From NCBI GenBank assembly GCA_021730905.1, contig JAKFYK010000025.1:81377-145376 (forward strand): a DNA stretch of 64,000 bases, read 5' to 3'. Below, piece by piece: positions 9,632-49,130 of this stretch. Positions within the stretch are counted from its first letter, which is position 1; each line of letters starts with the position of its first letter. Both the position numbers and the translations under genes were made by a program. The notes below the pieces were generated by a model that saw only the letters and a program-made list of their open reading frames with translations, searched no databases and was not told where the DNA came from. This DNA is from Betaproteobacteria bacterium. GTDB lineage: Bacteria > Pseudomonadota > Gammaproteobacteria > Burkholderiales > SG8-41.

Positions 9632-11693
<2,062 letters not shown>

Positions 11694-12679: not shown

Positions 12680-14575
12680 CTAGGCCCTCTGCTCCTTCTG
12701 CTCCGTGGGTCTCCACACCTGCCCGATCGACACGCTGTCCAGTTTGCGCCGCGTGCCGTACCACAGATTCACCAGCGCGCGCGACAACATCACCGCACTG
12801 AACATTGAAGTCAGAATGCCCAGACAGTGAACCACCGCGAATCCCTTGACCGGCCCGGAGCCGAATGCAAACAGCGCGACGCCCGCTATCAAGGTGGTGA
12901 CGTTGGAATCCAGAATGGTGCCCCACGCGCGTTCGTAGCCGGCAAAGATCGCCGCCTGTGGCGTATTGCCGCCGCGTAACTCCTCGCGCACGCGCTCGTT
13001 GATCAGCACATTGGCGTCGATCGCCATGCCCAGCGCCAGCGCGATGGCCGCAATGCCAGGCAGTGTCAGCGTCGCCTGCAGCATAGACAACAATGCTATT
13101 AAAAACAAAAGGTTACATGCAAGCGCCACAATCGAGATCACGCCAAACAGCCCATAATAAATGACCATGAATACGGCGATGGCGGCAAAACCGTACCACA
13201 TCGACTGGAAACCGATCTTGATATTCTCCGCGCCAAGCGACGGCCCCACTGTGCGCTCCTCCACAATTTCCATCGGCGCCGCCAGCGCACCGGCGCGCAG
13301 CAGCAACGACAAATCCTTGGTCTCGGTGGTGGTCTTGAAACCGGTGATCTGAAAGCGCGCGCCCAGTTCGGACTGAATCACTGGAGCGGTCAGCACTTCC
13401 GCCTTGCCGCGGTCGATCAGCAAAATCGCCATGCGACGCTTGACGGACTCACGCGTCACTTGCGTGACGATGCGCGCCCCCTGCCCATCGACGGTGATAC
13501 TGATAATCGGCCGGTTGTCGGTGGAATCAAACCCCGGCGACGCGTCGGTCAGGCGCTCACCGGTAAGCACCACCTGCTTGCTGAGCAGCAGCGCTTCCTT
13601 GCCGCTGTCGCGCTGCGAGTAGTGCAGCTCGGTGCCGAAAGGCACCTGCCCCTTGACTGCCTGCTCGATTTTCTGCGGATCGTAATTGCGCGAAGCCGGG
13701 TCGCCGGCATGCGCCTCGACCATGCGGATTTCCAGTGTGGCGGTACGGCCCAGAATATCCTTGGCGCGCGTCGTGTCCTGCACGCCGGGCAACTGCACTA
13801 CCACGCGGTCGGAACCCTGCTGCTGAATGATAGGTTCGGCAACACCGAGTTCGTTCACGCGATTGCGCAGCGTCAGAATATTTTGTTGCAGCGCGCTTTC
13901 CTGCGTGCGCCTTTCCGCCTCGAGCTTGAGCCTGCCGGTCACACGGAATTCACCGCCGTCCTCCTGTGACCTCAGCTCGAGATCGGGCATGGATTTTTCG
14001 ATCTCGGCCACGCCCTTGTCGCGCGCATCCTTATCGCGAAAGCGCACGATGACCGTATCCTTGTCACGCGACACACCGGTATATTGAATGCGCTTGTCGC
14101 GTAAGCTGCTGCGGATATCGTTAACCGTGGTATCGATCTTCTTGTTGAGCGCGGCCTTCATGTCCACCTGCAGCAGAAAATGCACGCCGCCGCGCAAATC
14201 CAGCCCCAGATACATCGGCAGCGCGCCGATTGATGACAGCCAGTCCGGACTGCGCGACAGCAAATTGAGCGCCACCACGTAATCTTCGCCCAACTGCGTC
14301 TGCAGCAATTCCTTTGCCTTCAGTTGCGAGTCGGTATCGCCAAAGCGCGCCTTGACGCCGGTGGGATCCTGCACCAACCCATCGGGCTTGAGGCCGCCCT
14401 TCGTCAGCGCATCCTCAACACGGCCCAATAACGTCGAATCCACTTTCGTCGTGGGTTTGATCGGCGACACCTGCACCGCGGGCGATTCGCCAAAAAAGTT
14501 CGGCACGGTATACAAAAAACCGAGCGCGAGCACAGTCAGTATCAGTATGTATTTCCAGAGTGGATAGCGGTTCAT
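12680..14575 (-). CDS. secD: protein translocase subunit SecD
   Basis: MNRYPLWKYILI, LGLDLRGGVHFLLQVD and the C-terminal six-helix core; adjacent to secF. Confidence 0.95.
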   Translation of the reverse strand: MNRYPLWKYILILTVLALGFLYTVPNFFGESPAVQVSPIKPTTKVDSTLLGRVEDALTKGGLKPDGLVQDPTGVKARFGDTDSQLKAKELLQTQLGEDYVVALNLLSRSPDWLSSIGALPMYLGLDLRGGVHFLLQVDMKAALNKKIDTTVNDIRSSLRDKRIQYTGVSRDKDTVIVRFRDKDARDKGVAEIEKSMPDLELRSQEDGGEFRVTGRLKLEAERRTQESALQQNILTLRNRVNELGVAEPIIQQQGSDRVVVQLPGVQDTTRAKDILGRTATLEIRMVEAHAGDPASRNYDPQKIEQAVKGQVPFGTELHYSQRDSGKEALLLSKQVVLTGERLTDASPGFDSTDNRPIISITVDGQGARIVTQVTRESVKRRMAILLIDRGKAEVLTAPVIQSELGARFQITGFKTTTETKDLSLLLRAGALAAPMEIVEERTVGPSLGAENIKIGFQSMWYGFAAIAVFMVIYYGLFGVISIVALACNLLFLIALLSMLQATLTLPGIAAIALALGMAIDANVLINERVREELRGGNTPQAAIFAGYERAWGTILDSNVTTLIAGVALFAFGSGPVKGFAVVHCLGILTSMFSAVMLSRALVNLWYGTRRKLDSVSIGQVWRPTEQKEQRA

Positions 14576-14580
14576 TTTAT

Positions 14581-14657
14581 CGTTAGACGTGAGGCGTGAG
14601 ACGTAAGGCGCGAGTGGGTGATGAAATGCTCCTCACGCCTCACGTCTTTCGCCTCAC
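14581..14657. repeat. heptad-periodic palindromic intergenic element H1
   Basis: Reads in 7-mers as CGTTAGA CGTGAGG CGTGAGA CGTAAGG CGCGAGT ... TCCTCAC GCCTCAC GTCTTTC GCCTCAC. Perfect 16-bp arms at 14585-14600 and 14632-14647. Fills the yajC-secD spacer. Confidence 0.85.
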
Positions 14658-14977
14658 GAGATGTTCTTGATCGTGCCTTTGGGCAGCACCACCTGCACAG
14701 CGGAGCGCTGGAGTACCATTTCCACGCCCTGCGCGACTTCGAGCGTGACGTAGTTCTCATTAATCTTGGACACACGACCCAGTATGCCGCCGCCACTGAT
14801 GACCTCATCGCCTTTTTGCAGCGCCTCGATCATCGCCTTATGTTCCTTGGCGCGCTTCATCTGCGGGCGGATCATCAGGAAATACAGCACGCCGAACATC
14901 AATACGATAAGCAGCATGCTTTCGATGCCGCCGCCCTGCGCCCCGCCGCTCTGGGCCCATGCCTCGCTGATAAACAT
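14654..14977 (-). CDS. yajC: preprotein translocase subunit YajC
   Basis: LLIVLMFGVLYFLMIRPQMKRAKEHKAMIEALQKGDEV is the YajC signature. Confidence 0.9.
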   Translation of the reverse strand: MFISEAWAQSGGAQGGGIESMLLIVLMFGVLYFLMIRPQMKRAKEHKAMIEALQKGDEVISGGGILGRVSKINENYVTLEVAQGVEMVLQRSAVQVVLPKGTIKNIS

Positions 14978-21600: not shown

Positions 21601-23043
21601 TCAACGTCGGGAACCACGCGTACTGTTACTCGATCCACTGCCACGGCTGGAACCGCTGGAACCCGAGGTGCCAGAGCTCGAACTCCCGGAATTCGATCCG
21701 CTGGAACGTGAACTGCCAGAATTGGAGCCGCTCGCACTCGATCCATCGGATCCAGAACTGGATCGGTTCGAACCGGAGTTGCTTGACCCTGATCCCGACT
21801 GATTTGAGCCAGAACCTGAGCTACTGGAACCGGAGTTACTAGTGTCCGAACGGCCCGAATTCCCGGAATCCGAATTGCCAGAATGACTGCCGCTACCGGA
21901 GTTATCCCGATCACTGCTATCGTGTGAATTACCTCCATCATTGCGTCCCGATCCCTGATTACCGCGCGAATCACTTGAAGTTCCGCCCGGATTTTCGCCG
22001 CGCGTGTTTTCGGAACGCTGCAAGATGACGCGATCCGCCAGCCAGGCATCGCCAACGCGGCGAACCTCAACCTGGACTTTGCGGCCGACCTCCAAATCTC
22101 GGTCATTGCCGCCATTGATACGTACCCGCGAAGATAGTTGCAGAGTGACCGCGCCCACGCTTATCTGATTTCCGCGCTGATTTGTTACATAACCCTCGAC
22201 GATGGCCCGCTGCGCACGGGAAATTGCATGTTGTATGGGTTGTACTTCCGTGCGGCTCGCCTGTAGGGCATTGCCTTTCCATGTGCCTGCGATAAAAACT
22301 TCCGTGCCGACCGAAGGCGGTAAGGTGCCTTGTGGCAGATTGACGCGCGTACCGTTTACGATTGCAGTGCCGGCCTCCACACTCGTTACCGTTCCCGACA
22401 CGCTTGCGCTGGCAGCGGATGTCGCTTCCACACGCGACGCGACGACAACGCCACCATCCGTGCGCAGCCCGCTCACGCGCACCGAAGTGCCGGGTTTGAT
22501 CGATCCGAGGTCGGGGACAATTGCGTTGCCCACGCGTACGGTTTGTCCCATCACCTGTAATTCGCGCGCCACCGCATTGATGCCGGTGACAGGGCCGCTG
22601 ACCGCATCGATGGCACCGATACCGTTGGCACGCAACTGGCCGCCGACAGTGCGCGCATGGACTACAACCAGTTGGCCCACCGCCAGATCGCGCGGCGCCG
22701 CTGTTTGACCATTCACGGAGACTGGTGTGCGATTGTCGTAATGAATTTCAACGCCGTTGACACAAATGCTGGCGAAGCCCGTAATGACGCCGACGATGCC
22801 TGTGCCCCCCATGCCGCCTGATCCGGGTACAAGGGGTGTTGTTGCCTCGGCCATAACACCGGTGCCACCCATGCCACCTTTGGCGACTATGCCAGTGCCA
22901 CCCATACCGCCGGTACCAGTATCGGGATTGGAGAGCGATGCACGGGCGCAGATATTTCCTGTCTCAGCGCCGTGTGCGGGCGCGACAGCACATGCAACAG
23001 TAAAAAGCGCGGTCAGGACAACGCGGTGGAACACGCTACTCAC
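21601..23043 (-). CDS. secreted DUF5666-like repeat protein with N-terminal GGMGGTG triplet and ~135-aa Ser/Gly/Asn/Arg-rich tail
   Basis: GTG start and signal peptide. GGMGGTGI occurs three times, followed by ITGFASICVNGVEIHYD and several beta-rich repeats (recalled as DUF5666). The C-terminus is low complexity, ...SGSGSHSGNSDSGNSGRSD...GSRR. Confidence 0.65.
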   Translation of the reverse strand: MSSVFHRVVLTALFTVACAVAPAHGAETGNICARASLSNPDTGTGGMGGTGIVAKGGMGGTGVMAEATTPLVPGSGGMGGTGIVGVITGFASICVNGVEIHYDNRTPVSVNGQTAAPRDLAVGQLVVVHARTVGGQLRANGIGAIDAVSGPVTGINAVARELQVMGQTVRVGNAIVPDLGSIKPGTSVRVSGLRTDGGVVVASRVEATSAASASVSGTVTSVEAGTAIVNGTRVNLPQGTLPPSVGTEVFIAGTWKGNALQASRTEVQPIQHAISRAQRAIVEGYVTNQRGNQISVGAVTLQLSSRVRINGGNDRDLEVGRKVQVEVRRVGDAWLADRVILQRSENTRGENPGGTSSDSRGNQGSGRNDGGNSHDSSDRDNSGSGSHSGNSDSGNSGRSDTSNSGSSSSGSGSNQSGSGSSNSGSNRSSSGSDGSSASGSNSGSSRSSGSNSGSSSSGTSGSSGSSRGSGSSNSTRGSRR

Positions 23044-26508: not shown

Positions 26509-26559
26509 TGCAATTTCCCTTGGCCGGAAGCAGACAAATGACCACATCGCTTCTCCGGC

Positions 26560-26685
26560 CGTCCGAAGGCGATATGGTCAAAGGTCTTGCCAAGTTCAGG
26601 AAACCGCTTGCGCCATGACCGGTGGGTCAAGTGTGTTGACGCAAACCCCTGCATCTTATGCAGGGCGACTACTCCCCAATGACGT
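26560..26685 (-). promoter_or_regulatory. yybP-ykoY-type Mn2+ riboswitch candidate
   Basis: The minus strand reads ...TTGGGGAGTAGTCGCC...GCGTCAACACACTTGAC...CTTGGCAAGACCTTTGACC... It contains the conserved GGGGAGUAG and GGCAAGACC blocks as I recall them, directly upstream of a UPF0016 gene, which is a classic association. Confidence 0.7.
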
Positions 26686-27677
26686 GGAAATTATAACAAA
26701 GATACCTCGTAAAGTGTTCGCTGCTTTATATGCGGGTTACCCACGGAGCGTGTTCCTTGCGGCGCAAATAGGGTTGCCCAATGGCAAGTACCCGTACAGC
26801 ATATCTCGTTGAAACTTAATTTATGGCGCAAAGTCAGATATGCGAATGCGAGGGAGGCCTTTTTTCCTCCTCGCCGATCCAGAATATTACAAAGGATCTC
26901 TTTGGACGTCACTGGACAACACCGGTTATCCGCTGGCTGAGTCAGCCCGTGTGATGCGCGTTAAGCATCAAAGGCTCGCAAGAGCGCCCAGAGCCGGGAA
27001 GTCCTTCTGTAATCCGGCCGGACCGTAGGCTAGGTCTGAAGATCGTAGTGGCAGCACCGTGATACTGCCCGCATGCCCTCTGTGCCGGCAGCGCAGTAAA
27101 CCGCTTCGCAGTGTGAAGCGGTAGTTTTAAATGGCGCAGTCTGCGCCAGTGGCCAACGATAGCATTTCATCAACGGCTGCTGCGCCAGGGTTCTTCGTGG
27201 TTCTGCGCCAGCCCTCTGGGCCAATGCGCGTCGTGACTAGCCAGTGCCAACTGCTAGTAACGACGCGCACAATCTCTGCGTCGTCAGGCACTTAGGCAGT
27301 AGTTCTGAAAGTGACGACCATCAGTGACGGGCCGTTCTGGCCCGTTAAATCGTAGGGAACCGTGCAATGCGGTTCGTCAATTGCCCGCCTACCGGGTGTC
27401 TAGTACAGCGCTTCCCTGGCGCAACCCGTGAGCCCGGGTACCAGCTCAAACCGATGCGTCTTCACGAAGGCACTATCGGCGCCAATGCCACGTATCGGGC
27501 AGGCCAGTCGTAAACACAACGATACATACCGGGAGTGGTGTCCCGCGGTCCCTCGTAGCGCCCCCCATGCTTAGGCATGAAGGCCGGACAGAAACACTTA
27601 CCTTAAACGCATTACACACCAAGAAGAACCGCAGGACAAGACAGACATCCCCTCGCCTGAATAATTGCGTCGAGGCG

Positions 27678-27765
27678 ACTGCGCTCGTACTGCAGTCCGA
27701 CTGCATTCGTACTGCATTCCGGATGCGCCTGGACTGCAATCCGACTGCGTTCGTACGGCAGGCGA
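27678..27765 (+). repeat. eight tandem 11-bp phased repeats (four 22-bp units)
   Basis: ACTGCGCTCGT ACTGCAGTCCG ACTGCATTCGT ACTGCATTCCG GATGCGCCTGG ACTGCAATCCG ACTGCGTTCGT ACGGCAGGCGA. Confidence 0.85.
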
Positions 27766-31495: not shown

Positions 31496-32329
31496 TCAGC
31501 CGCGATCTATCTCGACGTTGTCGATCAACCGCGTCCTGCCCAACCGTGCCGCCGCCAGCACCACCAGTTTGCGCTCGCCATTGGCCGGCGGCAACAAATC
31601 GGATTGACGCCGCACTGCGATGTAGTCGGGCTTCCAGCCGTGATGCGCGAGTTCGGCCATGACATCGAGTTCGACGCGCTGGTAATCGAGCGCGCCTGAG
31701 GCCAGTTCCTCGCGCGCCTTGCGCAGCAACTGGTAGAGCCGCGGCGCCTCGCGGCGTTCATCCGGCGACAAATAACTGTTGCGCGACGACAGCGCCAGGC
31801 CGTCTTCCGCGCGCACTGTCTCCGCCAGAATAATCTCGATCGGAAGCGCCAGTTGCCGCACCATGTTATTCAGCACCAGGCACTGCTGATAATCTTTTTT
31901 GCCGAAGATCGCCGAGTGCGGGTTCACCATATTGAACAGTTTCAGCACCACGGTGGCGACGCCGCGAAAATGTCCCGGGCGCACCGCGCCGTCGAGCATG
32001 TGTTGAATATCCGGCGGCTCCACGGTATACATCTGCGGCTCGGGATAAATTTCGCCCTCGTCGGGCGCGAACACCACATCGACGCCTGCGGCATTCAACT
32101 TTTCGCAATCGGCGGTGAGGGTGCGCGGATATTTGTCAAAATCCTCGCGCGGGCCGAATTGCAGGCGGTTGACGAAGATACTCACCACGGTGCACGCGGC
32201 GCGCGGTTTGGCGATGTTGATGAGCTGAATATGCCCGGCGTGCAGATTGCCCATGGTGGGCACGAACACGTTGTTGGGTACGCGCTGCAGGCGCTCGCGC
32301 AGTGCAGCGACGGAGTGAATGATGTCCAT
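31496..32329 (-). CDS. panC: pantoate--beta-alanine ligase
   Basis: FVPTMGNLHAGHIQLI, VSIFVNRLQFGP and FGKKDYQQ. Confidence 0.95.
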   Translation of the reverse strand: MDIIHSVAALRERLQRVPNNVFVPTMGNLHAGHIQLINIAKPRAACTVVSIFVNRLQFGPREDFDKYPRTLTADCEKLNAAGVDVVFAPDEGEIYPEPQMYTVEPPDIQHMLDGAVRPGHFRGVATVVLKLFNMVNPHSAIFGKKDYQQCLVLNNMVRQLALPIEIILAETVRAEDGLALSSRNSYLSPDERREAPRLYQLLRKAREELASGALDYQRVELDVMAELAHHGWKPDYIAVRRQSDLLPPANGERKLVVLAAARLGRTRLIDNVEIDRG

Positions 32330-32334
32330 TTTTT

Positions 32335-32411
32335 GGTGAGGCGTTAGGCGTGAGGAGTGAGGCGCGATGGGTTAGGTGTTGCGAGTCACTCCTCACGCCT
32401 AACGCTTCACA
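32335..32411. repeat. heptad-periodic palindromic intergenic element H2
   Basis: GGTGAGG CGTTAGG CGTGAGG AGTGAGG CGCGATG GGTTAGG TGTTGCG AGTCACT CCTCACG CCTAACG CTTCACA. The 25-nt arms (32336-32360 and 32386-32410) pair with one mismatch. Spans the panB stop and the panC start spacer. Confidence 0.85.
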
Positions 32412-43577: not shown

Positions 43578-43587
43578 TTAAAACCTG

Positions 43588-43623
43588 TTTCATAATTATT
43601 CACGGGTGCGAATAATTATGAAA
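43588..43623. repeat. AT-rich perfect inverted repeat (14-bp arms, 8-nt loop)
   Basis: TTTCATAATTATTC-ACGGGTGC-GAATAATTATGAAA. Confidence 0.85.
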
Positions 43624-43692
43624 TAGGTTCTGGGAAACACGCCGTCAATTTAATCACATCGGGCGCGAACCATCGCGCGTCAGGCATTCATT

Positions 43693-46499: not shown

Positions 46500-47672
46500 A
46501 TGAGGAGATTTATGTTCTCAGGATTGCTGGACCTGCCGTGGTGGGGTTACCTACTTGCCACGCTGGGATTGACCCACATCACCATCGCTGCGGTGACGAT
46601 TTATCTGCACCGCCATTCCGCACATCGCGCGCTGGACCTGCATCCTATTGTCAGTCATTTCTTCCGCTTCTGGCTGTGGGCGACCACCGGCATGACCACT
46701 AAAGCCTGGACCGCCATTCACCGCAAGCACCACGCTAAATGCGAAACCGTTGAAGACCCGCATAGCCCGCAGATCTTCGGCATTCGCAAATTGCTGCTGG
46801 AAGGCGCGGAACTCTACCGCGTCGAAGGCGCTAACAAGGAAACGCTGGAACACTACGGCCACGGCACGCCTGACGACTGGCTGGAAAAACATGTCTACGG
46901 CAAACACGACCGTATCGGCATCGGCTCGATGCTGATCGTGGATGTCATTCTGTTCGGCCCGATCGGCATCACTATCTGGGCGGTGCAAATGATGTGGATA
47001 CCGTTTCTTGCTGCCGGTGTCATCAACGGCATCGGCCACTGGTGGGGCTACCGTAATTTCCAGTCCGAGGACGCCAGCACCAACGTGGTTCCGTGGGGCA
47101 TCCTGATCGGCGGCGAAGAACTGCATAACAACCATCATGCTTACGCCACCTCGGCAAAGCTTTCCAATCGCTGGTACGAGTTTGATATCGGCTGGATGTA
47201 CATCCGCATTCTAGAGACGCTAGGCCTGGCCACGGTGAAAAAAATCGCGCCGAAGGTAAAACTCGTCGCCAAGACGCAATGCGATTCGGACACCTTGCAG
47301 GCCGTGATCACCCACCGCTACGACGTGGTGACACGTTATGCGCGCTCGTTGCGCGACACCTGTGCTGCCGAGATGCAGGCGTTGAAGGCGCGTGCCGTCA
47401 GCGTGGACAGCGCGCGGTTGCGGCGCTGGCTCCACATCGATGCTGCCGCGCTGCCCGAGAAGGAACTCGCGGAGCGTGCGCAAGTGATCAGCCAGAGCAA
47501 TGTGCTTTCGACGGTATACACCATGCGCGACGAACTCGCCGGCGTATGGCAGCGCTCCACTGCCAGCAAGGAACAGTTGGTGCACAAGCTCGAAGACTGG
47601 TGCCGTCGCGCCGAGCACAGCGGCATCGTGCCGCTGCAGGAATTTTCGAAGCGCTTACGCTGCTACGCGTGA
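46500..47672 (+). CDS. membrane fatty-acid (acyl-CoA/lipid delta-9-type) desaturase
   Basis: Three His boxes: HRHSAH, HRKHH and HNNHH. Confidence 0.85.
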   Translation: MRRFMFSGLLDLPWWGYLLATLGLTHITIAAVTIYLHRHSAHRALDLHPIVSHFFRFWLWATTGMTTKAWTAIHRKHHAKCETVEDPHSPQIFGIRKLLLEGAELYRVEGANKETLEHYGHGTPDDWLEKHVYGKHDRIGIGSMLIVDVILFGPIGITIWAVQMMWIPFLAAGVINGIGHWWGYRNFQSEDASTNVVPWGILIGGEELHNNHHAYATSAKLSNRWYEFDIGWMYIRILETLGLATVKKIAPKVKLVAKTQCDSDTLQAVITHRYDVVTRYARSLRDTCAAEMQALKARAVSVDSARLRRWLHIDAAALPEKELAERAQVISQSNVLSTVYTMRDELAGVWQRSTASKEQLVHKLEDWCRRAEHSGIVPLQEFSKRLRCYA

Positions 47673-47677
47673 AAGAC

Positions 47678-47750
47678 AGTTGGGAGTTTAGCGTCTGGCG
47701 TTGAGAGTAAAAGCGAACCGCGGTTACTTCCGACTCTCAACTCCGAACTC
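47678..47750. repeat. heptad-periodic palindromic intergenic element H4 (diverged)
   Basis: AGTTGGG AGTTTAG CGTCTGG CGTTGAG AGTAAAA GCGAACC, then the complement arm. GTTGAGAGT pairs with ACTCTCAAC around the apex AACCGCGGTT. Confidence 0.6.
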
Positions 47751-47756
47751 CATACC

Positions 47757-47785
47757 AAAAAAGCCCGCTTTCGCGGGCTTTTTTT
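47757..47785. terminator. bidirectional intrinsic terminator
   Basis: AAAAAA-GCCCGC-TTTC-GCGGGC-TTTTTTT, between the desaturase (+) and rpmG (-). Confidence 0.85.
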
Positions 47786-47948
47786 ACTTGATCTTCGCTT
47801 CCTTGTAGATCACGTGCTTGCGCGCAACGGGATCGAACTTAAGGATTTCCATCTTCTCCGGCATGGTGCGCTTGTTCTTCGATGTGGTGTAGTAATGCCC
47901 CGTGCCCGCAGAAGATTCCAGCTTGATTTTGTCTCGTTTGCTTGCCAT
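47784..47948 (-). CDS. rpmG: 50S ribosomal protein L33
   Basis: Hand translation: [54 protein letters not shown]. It falls below the ORF-track length cut-off. Confidence 0.9.
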
Positions 47949-49044: not shown

Positions 49045-49130
49045 AGTCGAAACGTGAAATGTGCGACGTGACCCGTAATGAACGGGGCGGCAAGCTTATG
49101 GTTTACTGTTCATGTCTCACATTTCACGTT
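49045..49130. repeat. heptad-periodic palindromic intergenic element H3 (variant)
   Basis: AGTCGAA ACGTGAA ATGTGCG ACGTGAC CCGTAAT ... The arm AACGTGAAATGTGCGACGTG (49051-49070) pairs with CATGTCTCACATTTCACGTT (49111-49130) with two mismatches. Lies in the divergent radC/coaBC spacer. Confidence 0.7.

Follow-up and report, generated by a model that had tools for sequence, protein, structure and literature searches.

The window, that is the whole 64-kb stretch analysed here (G000:C3:81377-145376), belongs to a 5.1-Mb draft genome (G000) made of 182 contigs, with 59% GC and a completeness of 92%. Four of its spacers carry inverted repeats, numbered 1 to 4 in Table 1, whose flanking genes were assigned by Pfam to YajC/SecD, PanB/PanC, a fatty-acid desaturase and RadC/CoaBC. 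These contexts agree with a preliminary description of the locus, which had also located the second element correctly and noticed its overlap with the panB stop codon; the panC-panB order that it gave has to be reversed, the operon running panB then panC.

Table 1. Coordinates of the repeat elements and associated features (positions without contig number refer to the window, the others to contigs of G000, outside the window for the octad hairpins)
Feature	Position	Strand	Units and remarks
Element 1, heptad array	14581..14615	+	CGTTAGA CGTGAGG CGTGAGA CGTAAGG CGCGAGT; 3' arm on the transcribed (-) strand
Element 1, loop	14616..14630		no conservation between loci
Element 1, complementary array	14631..14658	+/-	+ CCTCACG CCTCACG TCTTTCG CCTCACG; - CGTGAGG CGAAAGA CGTGAGG CGTGAGG (5' arm)
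yajC stop	14654..14656	-	TGA of the first heptad (tcG TGA GG)
secD start	14573..14575	-	MNRYPLWKY; 5 nt past the array
Element 2, heptad array	32335..32376	+	GGTGAGG CGTTAGG CGTGAGG AGTGAGG CGCGATG GGTTAGG
Element 2, complementary array	32384..32411	-	TGTGAAG CGTTAGG CGTGAGG AGTGACT
panB stop	32407..32409	-	TGA of the first heptad (tGTGAag)
Element 3	47678..47750		3' of the desaturase ORF; AGTTGGG AGTTTAG CGTCTGG CGTTGAG, weak degenerate AGTTnAG-type inverted repeat
Element 4	49051..49130		divergent radC/coaBC spacer; CGTGAAA TGTGCGA CGTGACC CGTAATG, degenerate heptad hairpin
Octad hairpins	C2:169547-169623, C4:19718-19781, C9:19843-19913, C9:32712-32775		
Octad hairpins	C14:67005-67065, C19:9714-9787, C25:14750-14841, C30:21687-21746		
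Octad hairpins	C50:18082-18181, C60:6893-6970, C145:3017-3145, C10:~11380-11450		
~9-nt-unit hairpins	C127:779-850, C109:2904-2972, C48:17581-17656, C28:41125-41200, C2:197633-197741		
Fixed-sequence palindromes, examples of copies	C13:4401-4484, C3:31745-31828, C146:3270-3352; C28:12801-12868, C153:2442-2499		

Elements 1 and 2 have the same layout: four to six tandem CGTGAGG-type units, a loop of 15-25 nt and the complementary units. Element 1 (14581-14658, yajC-secD) folds as RNA at -47.9 kcal/mol on either strand, with z-scores of -9.5 and -7.1 against dinucleotide shuffles, and element 2 (32335-32411, panB-panC) at -49.9 and -62.1 kcal/mol (z = -12). Element 4 has a 28-bp stem with 24 matches, a lag-7 identity of 0.62 and a strong fold (z = -5.7 and -4.7). 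As for element 3, its fold is weak (z = -2.2) and it is at best one of two copies of a small AGTTnAG sub-family, the other being G000:C2:31619-31701. The set of four initially grouped together therefore stands in part: elements 1, 2 and 4 were found at the positions first reported, the first two as clean, canonical CGTGAGG hairpins and element 4 as a degenerate yet folding member, whereas element 3 is a weak one.

The spacing to the genes is tight. The secD start follows an A-rich tract devoid of a Shine-Dalgarno sequence, and panC begins at 32329, 5 nt beyond the hairpin of element 2 (CACCAAAAA ATG). Strong GC-rich hairpins placed right after stop codons could be intrinsic transcription terminators or attenuators acting between cistrons, but this we judge very improbable: there is no U-tract after elements 1, 2 and 4 on either strand, within essential operons the hairpins immediately precede the next start codon, and element 3 has a separate canonical terminator on its 3' side. 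The latter, a hairpin followed by a T-run, lies just after element 3, at about 47757-47787.

Concerning the rest of the window, an Rfam scan at gathering thresholds gave no match at the elements and found just a manganese (yybP-ykoY) riboswitch (26512-26689, minus strand, 107 bits) and a tRNA. A 22-nt unit (CGACTGCGCTCGTACTGCAGTC) is repeated 3.9 times in tandem at 27676-27761. A 20-bp AT-rich, near-perfect palindrome, AACCTGTTTCATAATTATTC-N8-GAATAATTATGAAATAGGTT (43582-43629, i.e. G000:C3:124958-125005), looks like an operator, and a similar one is found at C1:204419-204477. The ORF at 46500-47672 (+) encodes a fatty-acid desaturase domain (residues 13-217) joined to part of an ISL3-type DDE transposase (residues 269-387); an IS remnant has probably truncated this gene or become fused to it.

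At the scale of the 5.1-Mb genome, a scan for arms of four heptads with at least 17 of the 20 fixed positions of the nGTnAGG pattern yielded 36 arms of 4-7 units each, in about 22 loci, vs. none in the block-shuffled genome. The heptad hairpins are thus, as the preliminary description had proposed, a real family and not isolated coincidences; the heptad register is indeed retained while the sequence drifts. With at least three tandem 7-nt units, a large excess over chance and a mainly intergenic location, the arms also qualify as long simple-sequence repeats. Among the 164 long hairpins of the genome (stem of at least 18 bp), 27 records are periodic at lag 7 and 17 at lag 8, and each of the other lags accounts for 0-4 (a periodic hairpin being one with a lag self-identity of at least 0.7). 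The stems measure 19-32 bp. An 8-nt sister family was identified, made of GTGAAGGN/GTGAACGN units mostly arranged around a palindromic GGGGTACCCC centre; it was absent from the preliminary description, as were the array-flanked PF05635 genes and the TGA, GTG and GAGG signals within the unit, presented below. A third periodic hairpin family, with a unit of about 9 nt (GGAACACnC / CAGATnAACA), was also recorded, and no partner gene was found for it.

The elements occupy very short operon spacers, most loci lying between co-directional genes, and the downstream gene begins a few nt after the hairpin. At 17 of 18 loci, the stop codon of the upstream host gene falls within the first heptad or at most 5 nt before it. 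In all 14 paired loci, on both strands, the CGTGAGG array comes before the CCTCACG array; base pairing by itself would permit the opposite order of the arms, which was seen in none of the 14. Folding of the sense and antisense strands is equal, with 44 vs. 48 G.U pairs (p = 0.42; 14 co-directional loci). Since neither the fold nor the G.U pairs favour the sense strand, no selection on RNA structure is claimed.

Being palindromic, intergenic, multi-copy and patchily distributed, the elements might belong to a REP/REPIN family moved by a RAYT (Y1 transposase), or be MITEs moved by an IS transposase. Such an origin is extremely improbable: PF01797 had no match in G000 (92% complete), vs. 6 of 14 control genomes scoring, and the copies have only the repeat unit in common, with no conserved head motif or core and no target-site duplication. 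No fixed palindrome of 20-40 nt with a head tetranucleotide was found, as the number of units, their variants and the loops differ by locus; nor did the copies show the fixed terminal inverted repeats, target-site duplication or cognate transposase of MITEs, no transposase being associated with them. Given the lack of a PF01797 gene and of any conserved core beyond the repeats, they are distinct from REP/BIME/RAYT systems, which is what had been supposed from the window. Two palindromic repeats of fixed sequence also occur in G000, one (TGTCATTCCCGCGAAGGCGGGAATCCAT) resembling the neisserial dRS3 (ATTCCC-N8-GGGAAT) and the other consisting of CCGTTCGGGCTGAGCTTGTCGAAG-N20-reverse complement. 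Also, REP-like hairpins of the GTAGGGCGCAATCC type are present in this genome despite the absence of a RAYT gene.

The unit itself carries translation signals, since CGTGAGG contains TGA (stop), GTG (start) and GAGG (Shine-Dalgarno). With a period of 7, which 3 does not divide, an array places TGA in all three frames, so that the 5' arm halts translation in 3/3 frames, whichever strand is transcribed; the palindrome presents its stop-rich arm first on either strand. CCTCACG has no stop in any frame, and a downstream gene can therefore be read through the 3' arm; that of element 1, on the transcribed strand, is open in 3/3 frames. Because neither 7 nor 8 is a multiple of 3, one unit gained or lost re-tunes the frame. 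Position 4 of the unit, left free in the scan, is G in 130 cases, A in 24, T in 13 and C in 2 (T vs. C, p ~0.004), i.e. TGA, TAA or TAG is retained, a pattern to which mutation bias could contribute. Among the units with a single variant, 42 of 51 keep the stop, vs. 67% expected. We abandoned the proposal that the loop leaves the downstream frame open in every hairpin, since about 50% would be expected to do so by chance.

Two loci of G000 have widely spaced arrays. At C15:9794-10215, in the yebC-ruvC spacer, three CGTGAGG units on one side and three CCTCACG units on the other enclose a 120-aa ORF (G000:C15:9831-10193), which matches PF05635 (S23p, '23S rRNA intervening-sequence protein'; E = 5e-35) and TIGR02436, and more weakly the Avd profiles PF22296 and NF033474. 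The closest solved structure is PDB 2GSC, the S23p of X. campestris; S23p forms a homopentamer in the published structure (Lin et al. 2006, as cited in PMC4990558). The second of the two PF05635 genes of G000 (C9:~21974-22279) lies in the nadK-recN spacer, in a cassette (C9:~21930-22365) bounded by GTGAAGGN-type octads, so that S23p genes carry the units of both main hairpin families. In these two cassettes the PF05635 ORF is located inside inverted repeats, as in the intervening sequences (IVSs) of 23S rRNA genes, and the four window elements are ORF-less. All copies lie between protein-coding genes, none being in helix 25 or 45 of the 23S rRNA, and no 23S rRNA gene was found in the G000 assembly.

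The association was found again in 17 relatives, where 24 of 28 PF05635 genes scoring above the Pfam cut-off have inverted arrays of 7- or 8-nt units on both sides. The flanking units vary by locus and by genome, most of them with a TGA[AG] core. A CGTGAGG-S23p-CCTCACG cassette is present between ahcY and metF in the complete genome G058, from another family. The signals of the unit are used at both ends of the 5' array: the host stop falls in the first unit, and the S23p GTG start in the last one, 8 nt past GAGG. Orthologous S23p genes have dN/dS values of 0.04-0.18, i.e. they are under purifying selection, which indicates that the protein is maintained. The S23p copies inside one genome are just 40-57% identical, and in the S23p tree, whose backbone is unresolved, the genes group by host locus; of the sister pairs that cross families, only one has a common unit, GGACTGA (L165 and L180). 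In a separate observation, fdhD, located between moaA and mobA (G000:C40:23483-24416), is bracketed by arrays, with a CGTGAGG array and a short internal hairpin in its 5' spacer and a solo CCTCACG x4 in its 3' spacer; a host gene is found there in the position that S23p holds in the cassettes.

The yebC-ruvC spacer provides a series of states. In seven relatives the site is empty and the ruvC start overlaps the yebC stop (TTGA/GTGA in five of them) or follows it by a few nt. G000 and G005 hold the full cassette, and G022, from another genus, has S23p between CGTGAGG arrays at the same spacing of ~387 nt. In G009 and G010 the spacer holds a gene-less heptad hairpin whose loop, GGCGCGAACACCAGG|AG|ATGAGCGGTGTCGCC, retains ~15 nt from the beginning of the S23p ORF and ~12 nt from its end; the deletion preserves the reading frame between the array GTG and ruvC. 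The hairpin of G013 is more decayed, and in G002 the 3' array stands alone. At occupied sites, the sole in-frame start of ruvC is an ATG overlapping the S23p stop (ATGA), and the 3' array then reads as SRLTPH before the conserved IRILGIDP. Comparing empty with occupied sites, the spacer and the last two codons are replaced, and no target-site duplication could be defined. A different insertion of 212 nt, rich in CCCCTCCCCCTTGACGGGGGAGGG-type palindromes, occupies this spacer in G011 (L191/L206), and the junction appears to be a recurrent landing site of unrelated small elements.

Other spacers were also compared among relatives. The dnaK-dnaJ spacer and the one upstream of leuB hold gene-less hairpins in G000 and S23p cassettes in relatives. 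In the yajC-secD spacer, almost all members of the genus have a hairpin, always beginning at the yajC stop, with CGTGAGG heptads in most genomes and GTGAACnn octads in G005 and G006; G015, the most divergent species, has none. As for the loops, those of the octad hairpins resemble the 3' inner junction of the octad cassette (GGTACCTCATTCAC), and a few others retain ACACCAG, a remnant of the S23p 5' end; most gene-less loops show no clear likeness to a cassette. It is through the shared unit and the yebC-ruvC deletion series that the window elements are placed in the S23p cassette family.

Slippage offers another origin for the arrays, as simple-sequence repeats grown locally when replication slippage expands heptamers in both arms of existing intercistronic hairpins, which selection would retain as mRNA stabilisers or decay barriers, as for the REP in malE-malF, S23p genes being unrelated passengers that by chance enter such hairpins or are kept in them. 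Heptanucleotides are the commonest long simple-sequence repeats of prokaryotes and abundant in Burkholderia (Mrazek 2007, as cited in PMC4679880), the loops are locus-specific, some array-rich genomes have no PF05635 gene, and the yajC-secD hairpin, present in nearly the whole genus with differing units, looks like a conserved structure with a free sequence. This explanation is nevertheless unlikely in our view, as it does not account for the 24 of 28 S23p genes standing exactly between inverted arrays, for the units of two hairpin families borne by two S23p genes, for the gene-less yebC-ruvC hairpins that keep both ends of the S23p ORF, for the 14:0 polarity with the TGA arm first, or for the lack of a sense-strand pairing bias.

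Eighteen of 41 close relatives have CGTGAGG arrays; for the order as a whole the figure is 27 of 201 genomes (21 of 116 genera), with a very patchy distribution even within genera; the reversed-pattern control gave none in all 201 genomes. PF05635 is present in 18 of the 27 genomes with arrays vs. 35 of the 174 without (odds ratio 7.9, p = 2.4e-6; 201 genomes), a statistic that ignores kinship, and the association within the genus is weak and not significant (p = 0.12). Three array-rich genomes, G001, G009 and G012, the last being the richest, have no PF05635 gene, which shows that arrays can persist without S23p. Beyond the order, the exact 21-mer (CGTGAGG)3 occurs in more than 119 contigs (L009-L127) of many phyla, including Chloroflexota, Planctomycetota, Bacteroidota, Acidobacteriota and Actinomycetota, mostly as direct arrays, the longest with ~34 units (L027). 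Within the examined flanks of the (CGTGAGG)3 loci L001-L127, an S23p gene was found at L002 only, so most of these arrays are gene-less.

Another reading is a regulatory role, in which the arrays would be the periodic binding platform of a host-beneficial regulator, the S23p pentamer or another RNA- or DNA-binding protein, and would form a post-transcriptional regulon over housekeeping operons instead of selfish DNA. Across families, the unit keeps its length and its TGA[AG]G core, purifying selection on S23p is strong, and in diversity-generating retroelements both nucleic acid and reverse transcriptase are bound by Avd, a relative of S23p (the matches to Avd profiles being weak here). A translational regulator was proposed by MacGregor for the TAACTGA repeats (PMC4679880). 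We find such a regulon decidedly unlikely, however, given the patchy occupancy of the spacers among close relatives, the switches between 7- and 8-nt units at orthologous sites, the absence of S23p from some array-rich genomes and the lack of a common functional theme among the occupied genes.

On balance, we consider it moderately probable that the hairpins belong, as members without an ORF, to a family of S23p cassettes residing at operon junctions. The complete cassette would consist of a PF05635 gene between inverted arrays of 7- or 8-nt units, its product being an Avd-like pentameric four-helix bundle. It would be the same kind of element as the S23p-bearing IVSs of the 23S rRNA, placed in the intercistronic spacers of housekeeping operons. 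Internal deletion of the cassette would leave a gene-less hairpin. With stops in every frame of the 5' arm and in none of the 3' arm, the elements would be tolerable inside operons. They would be transcribed as part of the operon mRNAs, and their stems of 20-30 bp may be cut by RNase III like those of IVSs, which would uncouple the stability of the flanking cistrons; for the host, they may be mostly selfish or near-neutral passengers. By analogy, the hairpins are probably RNase III substrates, and among the roles first suggested for them, that of a processing site, for RNase III, seems to fit best, S23p being a candidate for that of protein-binding platform.

Neither near-identical copies at different loci nor target-site duplications were found. 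Together with the 40-57% identity of the S23p copies and the locus-wise tree, this gives no demonstration of recent transposition, and the data agree just as well with elements that were inherited vertically for a long time and then decayed. A bolder form of the cassette reading is offered as a tentative conjecture: the S23p pentamer would be the missing trans partner of the heptamer and octamer arrays, forming with them a class of mobile cassettes that spans phyla and has no known transposase. These cassettes would home to operon stop-start junctions and rRNA helices, restore translational coupling by GTGA/ATGA overlaps, and leave ORF-less hairpins and solo arrays behind. If true, this would account for the origin of the rRNA intervening sequences and for the first rank of 7-nt repeats among the long simple repeats of prokaryotes.

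To our knowledge, heptamers have been on record as the most abundant long simple repeats of prokaryotes since 2007 (the STRRs since 1990), and we know of no mechanism or partner protein for them; likewise, we know of no explanation, in more than 30 years, for the rRNA intervening sequences and their S23p ORF. The present locus family ties the two together, with the full cassette, its deletion derivative and the solo array at one orthologous site, and the S23p cassette would provide a testable origin for bacterial heptamer repeats. The design rule, one arm stopping all frames, the other open, and a unit length not divisible by 3, would explain life inside essential operons. At a practical level, the hairpins extend or re-start the neighbouring ORFs, e.g. 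ruvC with its predicted MSSDASRLTPHV leader, and will cause errors of gene calling and operon prediction for Burkholderiales MAGs.

Regarding known systems, heptamer STRRs were reportedly described in cyanobacteria by Mazel in 1990. The TAACTGA repeats of Beggiatoaceae, Cyanobacteria and Bacteroidetes are heptamers situated directly upstream of starts (MacGregor, PMC4679880). As here, STRR/TAACTGA repeats are intergenic tandem heptamers, often before operon starts, including those of ribosomal-protein operons, patchy across phyla and with stop triplets within the unit; unlike here, they are nearly all direct arrays (1 inverted pair in 170), with neither hairpins nor a known associated gene. 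Xanthomonas genomes hold 70-75 convergent inverted pairs of heptamers each, with a preference for spacers between co-directional genes (Rehm et al. 2015, PMC4692102). The Xanthomonas GGGAATC and Nostoc GGGGAYT arrays share with ours tandem heptamers of ~4 units, co-directional spacers and a distance of at most 50 bp from stops or starts, and their repeat number shifts between species while the single or paired type is kept (PMC4692102). Their unit is rich in G-tracts and has been read as G-quadruplex forming, whereas CGTGAGG cannot form a G-quadruplex; no link to S23p is drawn in PMC4692102 for the Xanthomonas arrays, although the S23p of structure 2GSC is from X. campestris.

The preliminary description regarded the repeats as an undescribed class, a view that is not supported, since inverted heptamer pairs are published for Xanthomonas (PMC4692102) and S23p-linked heptamers for Coxiella (PMC4990558): heptamer-array palindromes and IVS-type cassettes are an already known, if poorly understood, kind. 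A full-text literature search retrieved no paper in which CGTGAGGCGTGAGG or its complement is spelt out, and no paper was found in the literature search that links intergenic heptamer hairpins to S23p cassettes.

Like the present elements, REP/BIME and REPIN-RAYT elements are intergenic multi-copy palindromes inside operons, but REPs have a conserved sequence of 20-40 nt, a GTAG-type head and a cognate Y1 transposase, whereas here there is no RAYT and the 7-nt unit alone is conserved. REPs act as mRNA decay barriers. The gene-less yebC-ruvC copies recall MITEs in being internal deletions of a gene-bearing element, but lack a transposase, fixed terminal inverted repeats and target-site duplications. 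As for mycobacterial MIRUs, which are direct repeats of 40-100 bp and not hairpins, they resemble the elements in filling intercistronic gaps, overlapping the flanking stop and start codons and preserving translational coupling.

The likeness to the 23S IVSs of Coxiella burnetii and Leptospira (PMC4990558) includes a PF05635 ORF between terminal inverted repeats and a stem of 20-30 bp. In the Coxiella burnetii IVS, RNase III cuts a 28-bp terminal stem, and a variable number of tandem GACAGAT heptamers precede the start of its S23p ORF (PMC4990558). RNase III cleavage is established for the Coxiella stem, and for the present hairpins we infer it from the likeness of the stems. IVSs lie in helix 25 or 45 of the 23S rRNA and the present cassettes in mRNA intercistronic spacers, where, unlike in IVSs, most copies are ORF-less, both arms are pure multi-unit arrays and the unit carries stop, start and Shine-Dalgarno signals; also, S23p is here under purifying selection, whereas that of Coxiella is decaying. 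Both, finally, include ORF-less forms, and in both, tandem heptamers of variable copy number stand just 5' of the ORF, whose start and ribosome-binding region lie inside the repeats.
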